In this document: piece after piece, positions 10,263 through 18,648 of the stretch | Numbering within the stretch: the stretch's first letter is position 1 | Layout of the letters: every line of letters starts with the position of its first letter | From: Escherichia coli | Lineage (GTDB): Bacteria; Pseudomonadota; Gammaproteobacteria; Enterobacterales; Enterobacteriaceae | Direction: 5' to 3' (one strand) | DNA length: 64,000 bases | NCBI RefSeq assembly: GCF_003334355.1 | Contig: NZ_QOWP01000001.1 | Program-made: the position numbers and the translations under genes | The notes under the pieces: generated by a model | Database searches by the model: none | Told to the model about the DNA's origin: nothing | Seen by the model: only the letters and a program-made list of their open reading frames with translations

Positions 10263-11405
10263 TTAAATCTGCTTTTCATACAATCGGTAACGCTTGTACG
10301 GCTCTGCCCCAATGCGTTCCAGCATGTTATTCATGCCTGTATTGGTTTCGAGGATCCATGACATCTCCAGCGCATCGATCTTCCGGCGGGCAAACGGATC
10401 GCGTAAGGCTTCAATCAATAACAGCGCAATCACCGGGCCGATGCGGCTGAACTGATACTCGTCGCGCACGCCCATCAGCGGTACTCGCGCAGTTCGCACA
10501 CCGCTGACTTTCAAACGCCACAGCAATTTTGCCCAGCCGAAGGGAAAGAGCGATCCGTTCAGATCGGCAATCGCCTCGTTGATGTTCGGCAAGCCGACAA
10601 TAAACGCGCAGGGTGCAGAATCAATCTCAGCGATATAGATCATATCGTCCGGCACCAGATATTTAAGTTGATCGCCCATGGTCGCGAATTCATGTTCGGT
10701 AAACGGCACAAATCCCCAGTTGTGCTGCCAGCCAGAGTTGAAAATCTCACGCAGGATCTGCATCTCTTCGGCAAACCGCTGACGATTGATGCAGCGAATG
10801 GTCACCTTTTTGCGCACCTGATCCATCAGTTTTTTTAGCGCCGGAGAGAAAGTGAGATCGGTTCGCTGCATCCACCACGCCAGTAAATCAATGCCTTTGT
10901 GATAACCCAGTTGTTCAATATGCGCGGCATACCACGGTTTGCCGTGTGGCATCATCGCACAGGGTGGTGTGTCAAAACCTTCAATCAGTAATCCGCTTTC
11001 CTGATTGATATTCAGGCTGAAAGGCCCGCTGATCTTACTTGCACCTTGTGACTTCAACCACGCTTCCGCTACGCCAAACAACGCGGCAAAAACCTGCGGA
11101 TCATCAATGGCGTCAATCATGCCGAAATGACCGGTATCTTTGCCGTAACGCTCGCGGTGCAAGGTATCTATTTGCGCGGTAATACGCCCAACTATCTGCC
11201 CCGCTTTTTTTGCCACCCACGCCTGCCAGATGATATGGTCCGTCCCCGGATTTTTCGCAGACAAATGCTCGTTGCGTTCAATGAATAAAGGGGGTATCCA
11301 GTTTGGATCGTCGGGATAAAGTGATGACGGAAAAGCGATAAATGCCTTAAGGTCATTTTTATTAATTACTTTTTCAATTTTAATCATCAGCAGATCGCAT
11401 TCCAT
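10263..11405 (-). CDS. yghO: YghO, GNAT-fold (acyl-CoA N-acyltransferase superfamily) protein; candidate N-acyltransferase of the adjacent lipid island
   Basis: Long minus-strand ORF; the track start at 11483 is a TTG. First ATG at 11403-11405 gives MECDLLMIKIEKV...; a second candidate ATG lies at 11387. Start uncertain. Family assignment is from memory of YghO annotation, not a motif I can prove here. Confidence 0.65.
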   Translation of the reverse strand: MECDLLMIKIEKVINKNDLKAFIAFPSSLYPDDPNWIPPLFIERNEHLSAKNPGTDHIIWQAWVAKKAGQIVGRITAQIDTLHRERYGKDTGHFGMIDAIDDPQVFAALFGVAEAWLKSQGASKISGPFSLNINQESGLLIEGFDTPPCAMMPHGKPWYAAHIEQLGYHKGIDLLAWWMQRTDLTFSPALKKLMDQVRKKVTIRCINRQRFAEEMQILREIFNSGWQHNWGFVPFTEHEFATMGDQLKYLVPDDMIYIAEIDSAPCAFIVGLPNINEAIADLNGSLFPFGWAKLLWRLKVSGVRTARVPLMGVRDEYQFSRIGPVIALLLIEALRDPFARRKIDALEMSWILETNTGMNNMLERIGAEPYKRYRLYEKQI

Positions 11406-11780
11406 AGTTCTGTTCTGTGGGTAACAAATAATTAACGGTGACAAACAGGTTGCAACAGCAACGAACGGCACCTTAATAATCAACCCAATGAATACAAACG
11501 ACGAATAAATAGTATTTATTAATGATTACGATAAGGTCAGAGACTACACAGAAGCGCCACAATGCCTTTTGTCGATTTAAGGCGACCGGACAAGGCTTCT
11601 TCTTAATACATTCATAAATTAAATATCATTCACAATAAAAACAAAAAACTTAAACTCATTATTTAAATCAATGTTCATTTTCACACCGATGAAAATACTA
11701 TCTCATTTATCTTTTATGCCTATATAATCCACCGCATTATTGTCATTTTATTTTTGATATCCAATTTTTTCGTGGTGTAT
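11406..11780. promoter_or_regulatory. AT-rich divergent promoter region between yghO and the acyl-AMP ligase operon
   Basis: Visibly AT-rich spacer (e.g. ttcataaattaaatatcattcacaataaaaacaaaaaacttaaactcattatttaaatcaatg) between divergent starts; typical of H-NS-silenced accessory promoters. Confidence 0.4.
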
Positions 11781-13502
11781 ATGTCTAATAAAATCTTTAC
11801 GCATTCCCTACCTATGCGCTATGCCGATTTTCCAACGCTGGTTGATGCTTTGGACTACGCCGCTCTGAGTAGCGCCGGAATGAATTTTTATGACAGACGT
11901 TGCCAACTTGAAGATCAACTGGAATATCAGACGTTAAAAACGCGTGCCGAAGCTGGTGCGAAGCGGTTGTTATCGCTGAACCTGAAAAAAGGCGAACGCG
12001 TGGCGCTGATTGCCGAAACGAGTAGCGGGTTCGTAGAGGCTTTTTTTGCCTGCCAGTATGCCGGCTTAGTCGCCGTCCCGTTGGCGATTCCAATGGGCGT
12101 TGGTCAGCGGGATTCCTGGAGCGCCAAATTGCAGGGTTTACTGGCAAGTTGCCAGCCCGCAGCCATTATCACTGGTGATGAGTGGTTGCCACTGGTCAAT
12201 GCCGCGACGCATGACAACCCCGAATTACATGTTTTAAGCCACGCCTGGTTTAAGGCATTACCGGAAGCCGATGTTGCGCTCCAGCGTCCAGTTCCGAACG
12301 ATATCGCCGACCTCCAGTACACCTCCGGCAGCACCCGTTTTCCCCGTGGCGTCATTATCACCCATCGCGAAGTGATGGCTAATCTACGTGCTATAAGCCA
12401 CGACGGCATTAAATTACGCCCTGGCGACCGCTGCGTCTCCTGGCTGCCTTTCTACCATGATATGGGACTGGTCGGCTTTCTCCTGACCCCCGTCGCCACG
12501 CAGCTTTCAGTAGATTATTTGCGCACTCAGGATTTTGCCATACGTCCTCTGCAATGGCTTAAATTGATCAGTAAAAATCGCGGCACCGTTTCCGTTGCGC
12601 CGCCGTTTGGCTATGAATTGTGCCAGCGCCGCGTGAATGAAAAAGATCTCGCTGAACTGGATCTTTCCTGCTGGCGCGTCGCTGGTATTGGTGCAGAACC
12701 CATCTCCGCAGAACAACTCCATCAATTCGCTGAATGTTTCCGTCAGGTTAACTTTGACAATAAAACTTTCATGCCGTGCTACGGACTGGCAGAAAATGCG
12801 CTGGCTGTCAGCTTCTCTGATGAAGCCTCCGGGGTTGTGGTTAACGAAGTGGATCGCGACATCCTCGAATATCAGGGTAAAGCCGTCGCGCCGGGTGCAG
12901 AGACACGCGCCGTATCGACTTTCGTCAACTGCGGCAAAGCGTTGCCGGAACATGGTATTGAAATCCGCAATGAAGCAGGTATGCCGGTCGCGGAACGTGT
13001 GGTAGGCCATATTTGCATCTCCGGTCCCAGTCTGATGAGCGGTTACTTTGGCGACCAGGCTTCGCAAGACGAGATTGCCGCGACGGGCTGGTTAGACACC
13101 GGCGACCTCGGTTATCTGCTGGACGGTTATCTGTATGTCACCGGACGCATTAAAGATCTGATTATTATTCGTGGCCGTAATATCTGGCCGCAGGATATTG
13201 AATATATAGCGGAACAGGAACCGGAAATTCATTCTGGCGATGCGATTGCTTTTGTTACCGCCCAGGAAAAAATCATTTTGCAGATCCAGTGTCGGATCAG
13301 CGACGAAGAACGTCGCGGGCAGCTTATCCACGCGCTGGCGGCACGGATCCAAAGCGAATTTGGCGTGACCGCGGCTATCGATCTGTTGCCGCCCCACAGT
13401 ATTCCCCGAACGTCCTCCGGCAAGCCTGCCCGTGCGGAAGCGAAAAAACGTTATCAGAAGGCTTATGCTGCCAGTCTTAATGTGCAGGAATCCCTGGCAT
13501 GA
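11781..13502 (+). CDS. Fatty acyl-AMP ligase / acyl-ACP synthetase (AMP-binding adenylate-forming family)
   Basis: Adenylation motifs YTSGSTRFPRGV, YGLAEN, DTGDLGY and GRIKDLIIIRGRNIWPQDIE; C-terminal SGKPARAE. Track start 11754 is TTG; first ATG is 11781 (MSNKIF), start uncertain. Stop overlaps next gene start (ATGA at 13499-13502). Confidence 0.8.
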   Translation: MSNKIFTHSLPMRYADFPTLVDALDYAALSSAGMNFYDRRCQLEDQLEYQTLKTRAEAGAKRLLSLNLKKGERVALIAETSSGFVEAFFACQYAGLVAVPLAIPMGVGQRDSWSAKLQGLLASCQPAAIITGDEWLPLVNAATHDNPELHVLSHAWFKALPEADVALQRPVPNDIADLQYTSGSTRFPRGVIITHREVMANLRAISHDGIKLRPGDRCVSWLPFYHDMGLVGFLLTPVATQLSVDYLRTQDFAIRPLQWLKLISKNRGTVSVAPPFGYELCQRRVNEKDLAELDLSCWRVAGIGAEPISAEQLHQFAECFRQVNFDNKTFMPCYGLAENALAVSFSDEASGVVVNEVDRDILEYQGKAVAPGAETRAVSTFVNCGKALPEHGIEIRNEAGMPVAERVVGHICISGPSLMSGYFGDQASQDEIAATGWLDTGDLGYLLDGYLYVTGRIKDLIIIRGRNIWPQDIEYIAEQEPEIHSGDAIAFVTAQEKIILQIQCRISDEERRGQLIHALAARIQSEFGVTAAIDLLPPHSIPRTSSGKPARAEAKKRYQKAYAASLNVQESLA

Positions 13503-14413
13503 ATCAAACTGTCGCGGTGACGGGCGCTACCGGGTTTATCGGTAAATATATTATCGATAACCTGCTCGCCCGCGGCTTTCACGTTCGCGCATTGACGCGT
13601 ACTGCCCGCGCTCACGTCAATGATAATCTCACCTGGGTGCGCGGTTCGCTGGAAGATACTCATTCACTTAGCGAGCTGGTTGCCGGAGCCAGCGTAGTGG
13701 TCCATTGCGCCGGGCAAGTGCGCGGGCACAAAGAAGAGATTTTCACCCGCTGTAACGTTGACGGCAGCCTGCGCCTGATGCAAGCAGCAAAAGAGAGCGG
13801 CTTTTGCCAACGTTTTCTGTTTATCTCTTCGCTGGCGGCGCGCCATCCCGAGCTCTCCTGGTATGCAAAATCCAAATACGTCGCCGAGCAACGACTGGCA
13901 GCAATGGCGGACGAAATTACGCTGGGCGTTTTTCGCCCGACAGCCGTGTATGGTCCCGGCGATAAAGAGTTAAAACCGCTGTTTGACTGGATGCTGCGCG
14001 GCCTGCTGCCACGACTTGGTGCGCCAGATACACAGCTCTCTTTTCTGCACGTCACCGATTTCGCGCAAGCAGTGGGTCAGTGGTTAAGCGCCGAAACTAT
14101 ACAGACGCAAACCTATGAATTATGCGATGGCGTCGCCGGCGGCTATGACTGGCAACGCGTACAGCAACTTGCCGCCGACGCCCGTTGCGGTTCCGTGCGA
14201 ATGGTTGGCATTCCTCTGCCGGTACTCACCGGCCTTGCGGATATCAGTACCGCGTTGAGTCGCCTGGCAGGTAAAGAACCTATGCTGACCCGCTCGAAAA
14301 TTCGTGAATTAACCCACGCCGACTGGTCGGCAAGTAATAACCGTATTTCTGAAGATATTAATTGGTTTCCCGGGATTAGCCTGGAACACGCATTACGCAA
14401 CGGGCTATTTTGA
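13499..14413 (+). CDS. NAD(P)-dependent epimerase/dehydratase-family (extended SDR) protein; candidate keto-reductase
   Basis: N-terminal Rossmann motif VAVTGATGFIGKYI and catalytic YAKSK (YxxxK); 304 aa; start overlaps upstream stop. Confidence 0.8.
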   Translation: MNQTVAVTGATGFIGKYIIDNLLARGFHVRALTRTARAHVNDNLTWVRGSLEDTHSLSELVAGASVVVHCAGQVRGHKEEIFTRCNVDGSLRLMQAAKESGFCQRFLFISSLAARHPELSWYAKSKYVAEQRLAAMADEITLGVFRPTAVYGPGDKELKPLFDWMLRGLLPRLGAPDTQLSFLHVTDFAQAVGQWLSAETIQTQTYELCDGVAGGYDWQRVQQLAADARCGSVRMVGIPLPVLTGLADISTALSRLAGKEPMLTRSKIRELTHADWSASNNRISEDINWFPGISLEHALRNGLF

Positions 14414-14444
14414 TTGTCTTGTTTAAAGGTGTGTTAACGTTTCT

Positions 14445-14693
14445 ATGGTAAATCGTGAAATAGTAATGGATTACATCCTTTCCTGTTTACAGGATTTGGT
14501 CGAAAACGGTGTGGAAATTAAGCCCGACAGCGATCTCGTCAACGATCTTGGCCTGGAGTCGATCAAAGTGATGGATCTCTTAATGATGCTGGAAGACAGA
14601 TTCGATATTTCCATTCCTATTAATATTCTGCTGGATGTCAAAACCCCTGCGCAATTAATGGAAACTCTACTTCCATGGCTGGAGAATAAATAA
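14445..14693 (+). CDS. Acyl carrier protein (stand-alone, pathway-dedicated)
   Basis: 82-aa acidic protein with phosphopantetheine-site-like motif DLGLESIKVMDLLMMLEDRF (ACP consensus DLGxDSLxxVEL); stop overlaps next start (TAATG at 14691-14695). Confidence 0.7.
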   Translation: MVNREIVMDYILSCLQDLVENGVEIKPDSDLVNDLGLESIKVMDLLMMLEDRFDISIPINILLDVKTPAQLMETLLPWLENK

Positions 14694-15865
14694 TGGGGCT
14701 ATACGATAAATATGCGCGCCTTGCTGGCGAGCGACTGCAATTTAGTGACAACGGGTTAACACCGTTTGGCACCTGTATTGATGAAGTGTATTCCGCCACC
14801 GAAGGCCGGATCGGCAATAAAAAAGTGATTCTGGCCGGGACCAATAATTATCTCGGTTTAACCTTTAATCATGATGCCATCAGCGAAGGTCAGGCCGCGT
14901 TAGCGGCCCAAGGTACCGGCACCACCGGTTCTCGTATGGCAAACGGCAGTTATGCGCCGCACCTGGCGTTAGAGAAAGAGATTGCCGAGTTTTTCAATCG
15001 CCCTACCGCTATCGTTTTTTCAACCGGTTATACCGCTAATTTAGGCGTCATCAGCGCACTTGCCGACCATAACGCCGTGGTGTTACTGGATGCCGACAGC
15101 CACGCCAGTATTTATGACGCCTGTTCTCTCGGTGGCGCGGAAATTATTCGTTTCCGCCATAACGATGCTAAAGATCTGGAACGGCGCATGGTTCGCCTCG
15201 GTGAACGGGCGAAAGAGGCGATTATCATCGTTGAGGGTATCTACAGCATGCTCGGTGACGTTGCGCCGTTAGCGGAAATTGTTGATATCAAACGTCGTCT
15301 CGGTGGTTATTTGATTGTCGATGAAGCGCATTCGTTTGGCGTGTTAGGCGCAACGGGGCGCGGACTGGCTGAAGCTGTCGGCGTTGAAGATGATGTGGAT
15401 ATTATCGTTGGCACCTTCAGTAAAAGTCTGGCCTCGATTGGCGGTTTTGCTGTCGGTTCGGAAGCGATGGAAGTGCTGCGCTACGGCAGCCGCCCGTATA
15501 TTTTTACCGCCTCTCCTTCTCCGTCCTGCATTGCGACCGTGCGCTCGTCGTTAAGAACTATTGCCACACAACCAGAGCTGCGGCAAAAGCTGATGGATAA
15601 TGCCAACCATCTGTATGACGGTCTGCAAAAACTGGGTTATGAGTTAAGTTCACATATTAGCCCGGTAGTGCCGGTAATAATCGGTTCGAAAGAGGACGGT
15701 TTACGCATCTGGCGCGAGCTTATTTCGCTGGGCGTTTATGTGAATCTTATCCTGCCACCTGCCGCGCCTGCAGGCATCACGCTGCTGCGCTGTAGCGTAA
15801 ACGCTGCTCACAGTCGTGAGCAAATCGATGCCATCATTCAGGCATTTGCTACTCTGAAGCAGTAA
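14693..15865 (+). CDS. PLP-dependent alpha-oxoamine synthase, serine-palmitoyltransferase-like
   Basis: 390 aa; PLP-lysine motif VGTFSKSLASIGGF (GTFSKS...GG is the Spt-type variant; BioF and Kbl have GTLSKA / GTLGKA); also DEAHS and glycine-rich TGTTGSR segments typical of the fold. Confidence 0.85.
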   Translation: MGLYDKYARLAGERLQFSDNGLTPFGTCIDEVYSATEGRIGNKKVILAGTNNYLGLTFNHDAISEGQAALAAQGTGTTGSRMANGSYAPHLALEKEIAEFFNRPTAIVFSTGYTANLGVISALADHNAVVLLDADSHASIYDACSLGGAEIIRFRHNDAKDLERRMVRLGERAKEAIIIVEGIYSMLGDVAPLAEIVDIKRRLGGYLIVDEAHSFGVLGATGRGLAEAVGVEDDVDIIVGTFSKSLASIGGFAVGSEAMEVLRYGSRPYIFTASPSPSCIATVRSSLRTIATQPELRQKLMDNANHLYDGLQKLGYELSSHISPVVPVIIGSKEDGLRIWRELISLGVYVNLILPPAAPAGITLLRCSVNAAHSREQIDAIIQAFATLKQ

Positions 15866-15871
15866 TGTGAG

Positions 15872-15905
15872 CCCGCCGTGGTGTTGCGCCACGGCGGGTT
15901 TAATG
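15872..15905. terminator. Bidirectional intrinsic terminator between convergent operons
   Basis: Stem cccgccgtgg / ccacggcggg (15872-15898) followed by ttt, lying exactly between the stop of the Spt-like gene (15863-15865) and the convergent LptG-like stop (15900-15902). Confidence 0.5.
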
Positions 15906-16979
15906 TTGTCTGTCATACCAATACACCAGGCTCAACGCCACCAGCACAAACGCTATCGGTAAACCGAGCGCGGTAACAGGTGCGCTCAACGCAAATAGCA
16001 ATCCCAGATTGACCATGATTTGATAGCTGATCCAGGTGAGTAAGCCAACGATGACACCTACAGCGAGACGGCTACCCATCCCTGGCGAGCGCGGGGCGCT
16101 AAAGGTAAACGGCACAGCCAGCAAAATCATCGCCAGGGTCAGGATGGGTTGCCCCAGTTTTTCCCACAGTGCAAGGCGGTATTCGCTGCTGGGTTGCCCG
16201 GTTTCCTGCAAATAATGGATGTAATGATTAAGCTAACGGACAGAAAAAGTATTGCCCGGCATTGATAACTCTTCAAGATCCATACTGGTGAAGGCCGATT
16301 GCCAGGCAAGATTATCTAATGTTTCCAGCGTTTCTTTGCCATTCAGCCATTTTTTATGATTCACACCATGCAGGATCCACGTTTTGTCGTCTTCAATGGT
16401 GGCACTGCGTGCATAAATGTAGGATTCGAGCGAGAGATCGTCGCGATAATGAAAAATCTCCACGCCCACCGGCTGGCCCTGCTCGTTCAGCGATTTCACC
16501 GTCACAAATTCATTACCACGCCTGGCCCACAGCATATTGCCGGTAATGTCATCGTCCTCCCCCAACGCGGTGGCGGTCGATTTGATTTGCAACGCCTGTT
16601 GCTGTAATGGCGACGCTACCCACTCATCTATCGCGCCTAACGAAACAGTCCACAATATCCCTGCAACCAGCGCCACCAGTGCAATACGGAAGATAGAAAA
16701 CCCCATGCTGCGAATGGCGGTAAGCTCACTGTTTTTCGATAACTGCCCCAGGCCGACAATCCCTCCCAATAAGGCGATAAATGGCGAAAGTTCGACCAGT
16801 GTGCGCGGTAAGGTCATTAGCACCACCAGCACCGCCTGAGTCCAGCGATAACCGCCCGGGCTGACATCATCCAGTTCGTTAATCAGGTTGAAGGTGGTAA
16901 AAAGCGGCAGCAATAGCCCTGCGGCGGCGGCAAAACCGAGAAAGAGATGACGGATTAAATAGCGGCTGAAAACATTCAT
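15900..16979 (-). pseudogene. LptG-like (YjgP/YjgQ family) permease interrupted by a single in-frame TAG
   Basis: ORFs 16233..17060 (N-part; ATG at 16979, MNVFSRYLIRHLFLGF...) and 15900..16211 (C-part, ...YRLALWEKLGQPILTLAMILLAVPF...) are in the same frame, separated only by TAG at 16233-16235. Together they give a ~360-codon LptG-type reading frame. Confidence 0.65.
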
Positions 16980-18046
16980 CGGGAAAATTTCTGCAGCAAA
17001 GAGAAGTCGCGTGCGACCAGCATCAGCAGGCCCATTAGCATGAGTCCGGGTACTAACCACAAACCAGGAATGAGGGGAATCGCGCCGTTAGCCACCAGCG
17101 TACGGCAGACGTCACCGCCATAAAAAATGGCAATAAACAGCAACGTCAGTGGCAATAACGTTGAAAATCGCCCTTGCCGCGGTTTTACCCGACTTAATGA
17201 AATGGCCAGCAGCGCCATCAACAATGCGGTCAGGCCACGGCTTTGCCGCCATTGCAGTTCGGCATGATCGGCCGGAAAGACGGAGCGCGCCAGCTCCGTG
17301 ACCGATTTTGCTTTGCGTTTGACGTTAGGGCTTTGATCCAGCGGATTCAGATGTAATTGCAGATTACGGTAGATCTGTTCGTTGTCGTCACGCCCCTGAT
17401 GATCGAGAAGATAGGCGGTGCCGTTGTGCAACATAACGGTCGGTTTCTCGGGAGATGGGTCAACCACATCAACCGAACGGGCACGGAAAATGCGGGTTCG
17501 ATTGGCAGTAGAAGTATAAATCAGCGCGTCAGTCAGGCGATTATTATCCTGATCAACCGTCTGCGAAAGGATCATTCGTCCGTTATCGTTAGTGTTAAAT
17601 TTCTTTGCCCGCAACTGGCGAACATCCAGCTCCGACTGCGACTGCTGCTCCAGTTGATAAATCTGCGCATAAGCCCACGGACGACCATACATCGACAGAA
17701 GGGTGACAAAAATACTTAGCGGTATCGCCAGATAAAGAACGGCTTTGTACAAGCGTCCCGGACTGCCCCCCGCCGCAGAGATAGCGGTAATTTCCGAGTC
17801 GGTATACATCTGCCCTAGCGTCACGCCAACTGACACATACAGACCAACAGGTAACAACATCTCCAGTGCAATCAGCACTTTGTAGAAAACGATATCCAGC
17901 ACAACATCAAGAGCTAATGTCCCATTTGCCGCTTCGGTCAGATAACGCTGTGAGGAGTAGCTGGCGAAAATAAAGATCAGAAAACCGACGATAATCAGCA
18001 CCAGACGGCGCGTACCACGCATGATGTAGTGTTCAACCAGCTTCAT
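16976..18046 (-). CDS. LptF-like (YjgP/YjgQ family) permease paralog
   Basis: 356-aa membrane protein; MYTDSEITAISAAGGSPGRLYK and SRVKPRQGRFSTLLP resemble LptF LYTESEIT / NPRQGR motifs; stop overlaps LptG-like start (ATGA at 16976-16979). Confidence 0.8.
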   Translation of the reverse strand: MKLVEHYIMRGTRRLVLIIVGFLIFIFASYSSQRYLTEAANGTLALDVVLDIVFYKVLIALEMLLPVGLYVSVGVTLGQMYTDSEITAISAAGGSPGRLYKAVLYLAIPLSIFVTLLSMYGRPWAYAQIYQLEQQSQSELDVRQLRAKKFNTNDNGRMILSQTVDQDNNRLTDALIYTSTANRTRIFRARSVDVVDPSPEKPTVMLHNGTAYLLDHQGRDDNEQIYRNLQLHLNPLDQSPNVKRKAKSVTELARSVFPADHAELQWRQSRGLTALLMALLAISLSRVKPRQGRFSTLLPLTLLFIAIFYGGDVCRTLVANGAIPLIPGLWLVPGLMLMGLLMLVARDFSLLQKFSR

Positions 18047-18076
18047 CTCACTAACGCCCTCAATCCTTTGAGTTTT

Positions 18077-18640
18077 TTATTCATTGATCAGTTTCTGCGC
18101 CAACGCAATGACATGATCTACCTCTTCCGGCGTCAGGCTGCCGTCCTTTGCCCACTGAATTTGCCCGGCTTTATTCAGCACCAGAATGGTTGAACTCTGC
18201 TCCGGCAAGCGCCAGGCAACGCGTCCCTGTCCATTGCCGTCAATAACGAATTGCGCCCACGGATAGCGGCGTTTATTTTTTTCGATTTTGCCAACAACAA
18301 AATAGCCAGTACCAAAGATGGCATCATCGGTGTTCACAATGGTGGTGGGCTGAAAACGATCCTGCGGAAAGTTTGCCGCTTCAACCGCTTTAATTAACAG
18401 TGAGTTCTTTTTCTTCGCCGACTTACGCCCGGCGATATACTGGATAATGCGGACTTTTCCCGCCAATTGTGTGCTGTTCCACTTTTGGTAGTGAATTTCG
18501 TCGTCACTATTCAGAAGCAGCTCGCCGCCTTCCTGGATATAAACGGGGGTAACCGTTTTGCCAGTGACGAAATTGTGTGCCTGAACACCCGGGGCTAAGA
18601 GCATGATAATCAGCGCAATAATCAAACGAAATGACATCAT
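18077..18640 (-). CDS. Periplasmic YtfJ-family-like protein with signal peptide
   Basis: 187 aa, N-terminal signal peptide MMSFRLIIALIIMLLAPGVQA; central TTIVNTDDAIFGTGYF and C-terminal WAKDGSLTPEEV resemble YtfJ (from memory). Confidence 0.55.
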   Translation of the reverse strand: MMSFRLIIALIIMLLAPGVQAHNFVTGKTVTPVYIQEGGELLLNSDDEIHYQKWNSTQLAGKVRIIQYIAGRKSAKKKNSLLIKAVEAANFPQDRFQPTTIVNTDDAIFGTGYFVVGKIEKNKRRYPWAQFVIDGNGQGRVAWRLPEQSSTILVLNKAGQIQWAKDGSLTPEEVDHVIALAQKLINE

Positions 18641-18648
18641 TGCTCCGG

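Follow-up and report, generated by a model that had tools for sequence, protein, structure and literature searches.

yghO of Escherichia coli very probably encodes an orthologue of the bacterial ceramide synthase bCerS, with a predicted tandem GNAT fold

The gene yghO was analyzed in a 64,000-nucleotide stretch of Escherichia coli contig NZ_QOWP01000001.1 (RefSeq assembly GCF_003334355.1), hereafter called the window, in which position 1 is the first nucleotide. The protein YghO is very probably the E. coli orthologue of bCerS, the ceramide synthase of Caulobacter (CCNA_01212/CC_1154), and a soluble or peripheral cytoplasmic protein of about 374 residues with two fused GNAT domains. The assignment as such is already known, the orthology call having been in print since 2022: Padilla-Gomez et al. 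(PMC9386255) listed "aca: CC_1154, yghO ECD_02850" among the dihydroceramide genes and considered the product a probable N-acyltransferase. The first-pass annotation, made from the sequence alone, had likewise proposed YghO as the candidate N-acyltransferase for ceramide formation, and the proposal is supported by homology to bCerS, by the absence of any other bCerS match in the window, and by synteny; the enzyme activity of YghO is inferred here from these comparisons.

The bcerS locus was obtained via the published cloning primer EK1199 (supplement of PMC11087976), of which the gene-specific portion was used. A 384-amino-acid (aa) open reading frame (ORF) of Caulobacter vibrioides begins at this primer, directly after LptF2/LptG2-like genes, and the published Caulobacter gene order (ccna_01214, 01213, 01212) agrees with the fetched LptF/LptG-bcerS locus. 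In BLASTP, YghO and this protein aligned over 365 of 374 residues with 45% identity, 62% positives, 2 gaps, and an E value of 1e-112, and a tblastn search of the window with bCerS returned yghO as the sole match (E 4e-102). The published Table S2 gives 44% identity, E 1e-107, and 98% coverage for CC_1154 against ECD_02850. By the thresholds used in the field to recognize homologues (E ≤ 1e-30 and coverage of at least 50%; PMC11334938), YghO is a full-length homologue of bCerS. The two proteins share the family-invariant residues and the C-terminal motif ...Y(K)xYRxYEKxL. Invariant positions of the family include G67/R68, F88/G89, W220/W224, R301, G306, W344, N349, and Y367. bCerS has been described as a cytoplasmic peripheral-membrane acyltransferase (PMC11087976), and no membrane segment was predicted in the YghO model. 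The E. coli protein is 80–82% identical to its counterparts in Serratia, Pantoea, and Erwinia, with all family-invariant residues kept, and 6437 cluster representatives match it at E ≤ 1e-3, as expected of a genuine gene.

The genomic association of the bCerS family was also found, with spt, cerR, acpR, and aasR located near yghO (Table 1). These neighbours and a pair of LptF/LptG paralogues are common to Caulobacter and E. coli, whereas the arrangement differs: bcerS follows lptF2-lptG2 in Caulobacter, while the five ceramide genes of E. coli form a compact group in which yghO and the aasR operon diverge. In Serratia liquefaciens, yghO is again divergent from aasR-cerR-acpR-spt, and its outer flank is occupied by dgkA and a MATE pump gene rather than glcC. 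The divergent pairing with an AMP-ligase gene recurs in all three distant loci examined (L005, L006, and L007), whose homologues are 44–50% identical to YghO. In L005 and L006 the ligase gene is followed by an epimerase-family gene, acyl carrier protein (ACP) and Spt genes are also present in L006, and the downstream order is not visible in L007, whose contig ends just within the ligase gene. LptF/LptG pairs adjoin the yghO homologues in L005–L008.

NTP_transf_3, DAGK_cat, Tam41, and Metallophos domains are also encoded in L005–L007, and the Caulobacter cpg genes have been reported to include cytidylyltransferase and lipid-kinase types, as in these loci. In the enterobacterial locus, no genes with NTP_transf_3, DAGK_cat, or Tam41 domains were found, and yghQ/R/S/T are present in their place. 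In Serratia, where lptF2, lptG2, and ytfJ are absent, the ceramide genes are inherited together with the 274-aa gene, yghQ, and yghR/S/T (62–72% identity). Since the enterobacterial locus is devoid of DAGK_cat, Tam41, and NTP_transf_3 genes, the 274-aa gene, yghQ, and yghR/S/T may serve in making a different head group or in flipping it.

The whole chain of YghO was modelled as two GNAT domains with a predicted local distance difference test score (pLDDT) above 87 throughout. The mixed beta-sheet with the beta4/beta5 splay of the GNAT fold is present in the model in duplicate, and the structural neighbours of the model are all acyltransferases. The GNAT label given in the first-pass annotation, for which a profile and fold search had been suggested, was recovered from the predicted fold and not from the Pfam or NCBIfam models. 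Among 59 relatives of YghO, PF00583 was matched by 7 at E ≤ 1e-3 and by 19 at E ≤ 0.1. A profile of the YghO family, searched against Protein Data Bank (PDB) sequences, retrieved GNATs only (E 0.06–1.5), all on residues 308–380, while phmmer with the single YghO sequence against the same sequences gave chance matches only (bacterioferritin, FPA). The GNAT membership of YghO rests on its predicted fold, the sequence signature being overly diverged for the Pfam GNAT models. The C-terminal domain contains, in the expected place, MGV-RDEYQFSRIG (MGV-KKKFQTSQRG in bCerS), which aligned with motif A of 2ge3, 3tt2, and 7q3a (E 0.06–0.3). The recognizable motif A/B sequence (MGV-RDEYQFSRIG ... SWILETN) is limited to the C-terminal half, and conservation is equal in the two halves (mean top-residue frequencies of 0.53 and 0.50). 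Because motif A/B is kept in that half only, the C-terminal GNAT domain is probably the thioester-binding, catalytic one, and a role in shaping the acceptor site for the lipid is probable for the N-terminal domain, which is conserved to the same degree.

Several observations weigh against the assignment of YghO to a ceramide pathway. No Pfam-A or NCBIfam match was obtained for YghO, even at E ≤ 10. The GNAT loop Q/R-x-x-G-x-G/A is divergent and longer in YghO (QFSRIG), the usual position of the catalytic Tyr is occupied by Leu356, judging from the alignment, and the closest solved structures are acetyltransferases rather than long-chain acyltransferases. The searchable literature yielded no experiment that probes E. 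coli YghO directly by enzymology or genetics, and no report of ceramide or sphingolipid made natively by E. coli. Finally, the lptG paralogue (lptG2) of the present strain is interrupted by a nonsense codon at 16230-16232 (codon 250), which suggests that the pathway may be idle in this strain; the codon deserves attention because sphingolipid-producing Caulobacter does not survive without LptF2/G2. Traced by its 41-nt context, the nonsense allele occurs in 1 of 5426 complete E. coli genomes, that of strain PSS-12, and is a mutation private to this strain or else an error of sequencing. A widespread decay of lptG2 in E. coli was rejected on this count.

The minus-strand ORF 10263..11483 is intact and comprises 406 codons when counted from TTG 11483; it contains in-frame ATGs at 11405 (380 aa, the RefSeq start) and 11387 (374 aa). 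The ORF coordinates bear out the first description of about 380 codons with an upstream TTG and these two ATGs. The N-terminus had been left ambiguous in that description; orthologues and DNA conservation favour ATG 11387. The orthologues compared outside E. coli (Serratia, Pantoea, Erwinia, Citrobacter, Pluralibacter, Kosakonia, and Mangrovibacter; 374–381 aa) all begin with MI+[IV]EKV, equivalent to ATG 11387, as does a GenBank E. coli entry (P0003). Nucleotide similarity between E. coli and Serratia breaks off exactly at ATG 11387, and the alignments of distant relatives (representatives with 33–50% identity) with the 380-aa YghO open at residues 7–10. Because the orthologue N-termini, the limit of DNA conservation with Serratia, and the alignment starts of distant homologues agree, ATG 11387 is the best-supported start by sequence comparison, in preference to RefSeq ATG 11405. 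No strong Shine-Dalgarno sequence was found ahead of either ATG. The six extra codons of the RefSeq call (MECDLL) are specific to E. coli and probably part of the 5′ untranslated region (UTR). TTG 11483 was rejected as a start, its 32 extra codons having no homologous counterpart and lying within non-conserved AT-rich DNA.

The family is named inconsistently in the AFDB50 and cluster data, where its members appear as N-acetyltransferase, GNAT family, DNA-binding protein, dATP pyrophosphohydrolase, virulence-associated protein VagC, and YghO; the name "ceramide synthase" did not occur among the listed AFDB50 and cluster matches of the YghO/bCerS family. In RefSeq the product is simply "protein YghO". 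The 10 cluster representatives checked were proteins from metagenome-assembled genomes of Kiloniellales and Deltaproteobacteria, and the Caulobacter protein was not among them. Four members are oversized: P0121 (784 aa, with two matched stretches), P0132 (630 aa), P0193 (940 aa), and A0A258FMV3 (701 aa). Their lengths imply putative duplications or fusions of the bCerS-like module with other domains.

The 375-bp spacer between yghO and aasR has a GC content of 0.320 against 0.515 for the whole window and ranks in the lowest 1% of 375-bp windows, in full agreement with the earlier description of yghO as divergent from the ligase operon across an AT-rich spacer of this length. Transcription from an AT-rich promoter had been claimed as well, and this part was not supported: the sigma-70 consensus scan gave 3 sites versus 3.9 ± 2.1 in shuffled sequences. 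The promoter and terminator scan, which covered 10100–12000, returned nothing exceeding shuffled sequence. The Rfam search of the spacer gave no match, and the repeat search revealed just a single weak inverted repeat of 19 nt, which overlaps the start of aasR. Another AT-rich segment (GC about 0.34), at 22350–22650 in the divergent yghS/yghT intergenic region, resembles this spacer.

The substrates of YghO may be placed in a pathway in which the sphingoid base would be supplied by the neighbouring operon, with AasR loading a fatty acid on AcpR and Spt joining acyl-AcpR and serine to give 3-oxosphinganine. For E. coli B proteins, AasR has been reported to acylate the dedicated AcpR, and Spt to prefer acyl-AcpR in forming 3-oxosphinganine (PMC9386255). 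YghO would then use a thioester donor to attach a second fatty acyl chain to the C2 amine by a direct attack of the GNAT type, yielding (oxo)dihydroceramide. By analogy with bCerS the donor would be acyl-CoA, and acyl-AcpR is also possible. A CerR-like reductase step would follow YghO in the Klein model or precede it in the Geiger model, the order of reduction and acylation being disputed between the two laboratories (PMC11087976). In BL21(DE3), spots migrating like sphinganine and ceramide in thin-layer chromatography were ascribed to the intrinsic ECD_02852 and ECD_02850, and the clustering of all five genes was described as confined to Caulobacter and E. coli BL21 (PMC9386255). In a 2026 preprint of the Klein laboratory (10.64898/2026.04.12.717747), the sphingolipid operons of E. 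coli UTI89 are drawn beside those of Caulobacter, and the LptF2/G2 paralogues are reported as required for sphingolipid transport.

The segment from glcC to spt was present over at least 80% of its length in about 4051 of 5426 complete E. coli genomes, and a full-length lptG paralogue in 4100 of them; the segment of the window was 99.9% identical to that of strain PSS-12. In K-12 MG1655 (compared region L004, 3130146–3131340), IS5 (insH9) replaces window positions 11366–19753 (8.4 kb), with the loss of the first seven yghO codons, the spacer, aasR, cerR, acpR, spt, lptG2, lptF2, ytfJ, the 274-aa gene, and the 3′ end of yghQ. The K-12 "YghO" of 390 aa begins inside IS5 because the IS5-associated deletion removed the native start, and it is mislabelled as a DNA-binding regulator. 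A further possibility, which we regard as somewhat doubtful, is that a ceramide-based lipid of the outer membrane is a native product of the majority of E. coli strains (some three quarters of the complete genomes) in conditions as yet untried, with YghO as the ceramide synthase and a head group other than the ceramide phosphoglycerate of Caulobacter.

Three other readings of YghO were weighed. It might be a generic small-molecule or protein N-acetyltransferase using acetyl-CoA, like its nearest relatives of known structure (MshD, glucosamine N-acetyltransferase, and Eis), and its position at the lipid operon would then be incidental. Its identity to such structures is 10–17%, however, against 45% over the full length to bCerS, and its linkage with spt, cerR, acpR, and aasR persists in loci of 44–82% identity with differing flanks. 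In a lysine-acetylation screen of 25 E. coli GNATs, the cloned K-12 YghO was not among the 8 with acetylated bands, the allele used being N-terminally disrupted. Taken together, a generic acetyltransferase is very unlikely. The label of a DNA-binding transcriptional regulator, attached to the protein in K-12 MG1655 and in several UniProt entries, derives from annotation alone ("putative DNA-binding transcriptional regulator YghO" and "DNA-binding protein" names in AFDB). No DNA-binding Pfam domain was found in YghO or in the relatives scanned, and the two predicted GNAT domains account for the entire chain, with exclusively acyltransferase neighbours; the label is effectively refuted by the predicted fold, and its probability is close to nil.

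The remaining reading accepts yghO as a bCerS orthologue and holds that the pathway in E. coli is a silent or decaying relic, in which YghO is intact by inertia, remains unexpressed, and makes no lipid in nature. The GC content of the spacer is typical of xenogeneically silenced DNA, and no convincing sigma-70 promoter accompanies it; the 8.4-kb loss in K-12, including the yghO start, was apparently harmless; and the lptG2 nonsense codon and the lack of a native ceramide report found in the literature fit a relic as well. On the other side, about 4050–4100 of the 5426 complete genomes retain the whole segment and a full-length lptG2, and only a single genome carries the nonsense allele. The 80–82% identity of YghO to its counterparts in Serratia, Pantoea, and Erwinia, with the invariant residues kept, argues for purifying selection, and BL21(DE3) seemingly processed 3-oxosphinganine further by its own enzymes. 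A relic is considered very unlikely.

YghO as a bCerS orthologue differs from known systems of related fold or function. The tandem-GNAT structures MAB_4324 (7q3a), Clostridium acetobutylicum glucosamine N-acetyltransferase (5kf1), clavulanate ORF14 (2wpw), and MshD (1ozp) are 13–14% identical to YghO, which is 30–80 residues longer, and they transfer acetyl groups to amino-sugar or small-molecule acceptors rather than a long acyl chain to a lipid base. N-myristoyltransferase (2p6e), a eukaryotic enzyme, is a much weaker structural match, and its acceptor is a protein N-terminal glycine; its acyl-CoA site is located in the N-terminal half. Eukaryotic ceramide synthases (Lag1p/CerS) would share with YghO the net reaction, the N-acylation of a sphingoid base with acyl-CoA, but they are TLC-domain integral membrane proteins with a polytopic fold unrelated to that of YghO. 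The bacterial ceramide pathway has reportedly been described as convergent, in the title of Stankeviciute et al. (2022), cited in later papers.

The features of the locus are listed in Table 1. The RefSeq start of aasR is ATG 11814; the upstream ATG 11781 adds MSNKIFTHSLP, conserved in Serratia as MSETSSTHSLP, and the Serratia AasR orthologue aligns from residue 1 of the resulting 573-aa form. The upstream start is the better supported of the two, and the longer form is probably correct. The spt gene owes its name at NCBI to an equivalog model. The acpR gene is markedly AT-richer (GC 0.41) than its operon neighbours (0.52–0.55).

Table 1. Features of the yghO locus in the window (strand: +, plus; -, minus;., none given)
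Feature	Position	Strand	Basis or remark
glcDEFGBA	upstream of glcC	-	gene order
glcC	9432-10256	+	gene order
yghO coding sequence, 374-aa form	10263..11387	-	very probable bCerS orthologue; predicted tandem GNAT fold
six extra codons MECDLL of the RefSeq 380-aa call	11388..11405	-	without counterpart in other genera
AT-rich divergent intergenic spacer, 375 bp	11406..11780	.	presumed site of the yghO and aasR operon promoters
aasR, fatty acyl-AMP ligase/specialised acyl-ACP synthetase	11781..13502	+	NCBIfam NF006624, 867 bits
cerR-like NAD-dependent epimerase/dehydratase reductase, ECD_02852 homologue	13499..14413	+	NCBIfam SDR/epimerase, RefSeq name; kept in L002 (Serratia), L005, L006
acpR, specialised ACP	14445..14693	+	ACP models; same-position PP-binding gene in L002, L006; PMC9386255
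spt, serine palmitoyltransferase	14693..15865	+	NCBIfam NF047599 equivalog, 599 bits (cut-off 500); RefSeq name spt
lptG paralogue (LptG2-like), pseudogene here	15900..16979	-	nonsense codon 16230-16232; RefSeq flag "internal stop"
lptF paralogue (LptF2-like), candidate sphingolipid exporter subunit	16976..18046	-	TIGR04407, 317 bits; preprint 10.64898/2026.04.12.717747
YtfJ-family gene, 274-aa unknown, yghQ, yghR, yghS	beyond lptF paralogue	-	gene order
274-aa hypothetical, yghQ, yghR, yghS, yghT	span 18649-23237	strands as gene order	MOP-flippase-like yghQ; dTMP-kinase-like P-loop paralogues yghR/S/T
yghT, pitB, gss	after yghS	.	gene order

The present analysis adds to the published assignment its confirmation, a corrected start at 11387, and a tandem-GNAT description of a family not covered by Pfam and NCBIfam. 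E. coli is the reference organism of envelope biology, and its textbook lipidome is without sphingolipids, yet most natural isolates hold a complete ceramide gene set, which laboratory K-12 lacks through the IS5 deletion. If the role of YghO is confirmed, the core ceramide pathway of E. coli (AasR, AcpR, Spt, YghO, and CerR) would be complete, and clean genetic tests could then ask whether the host is presented with ceramide lipids by commensal and pathogenic E. coli.
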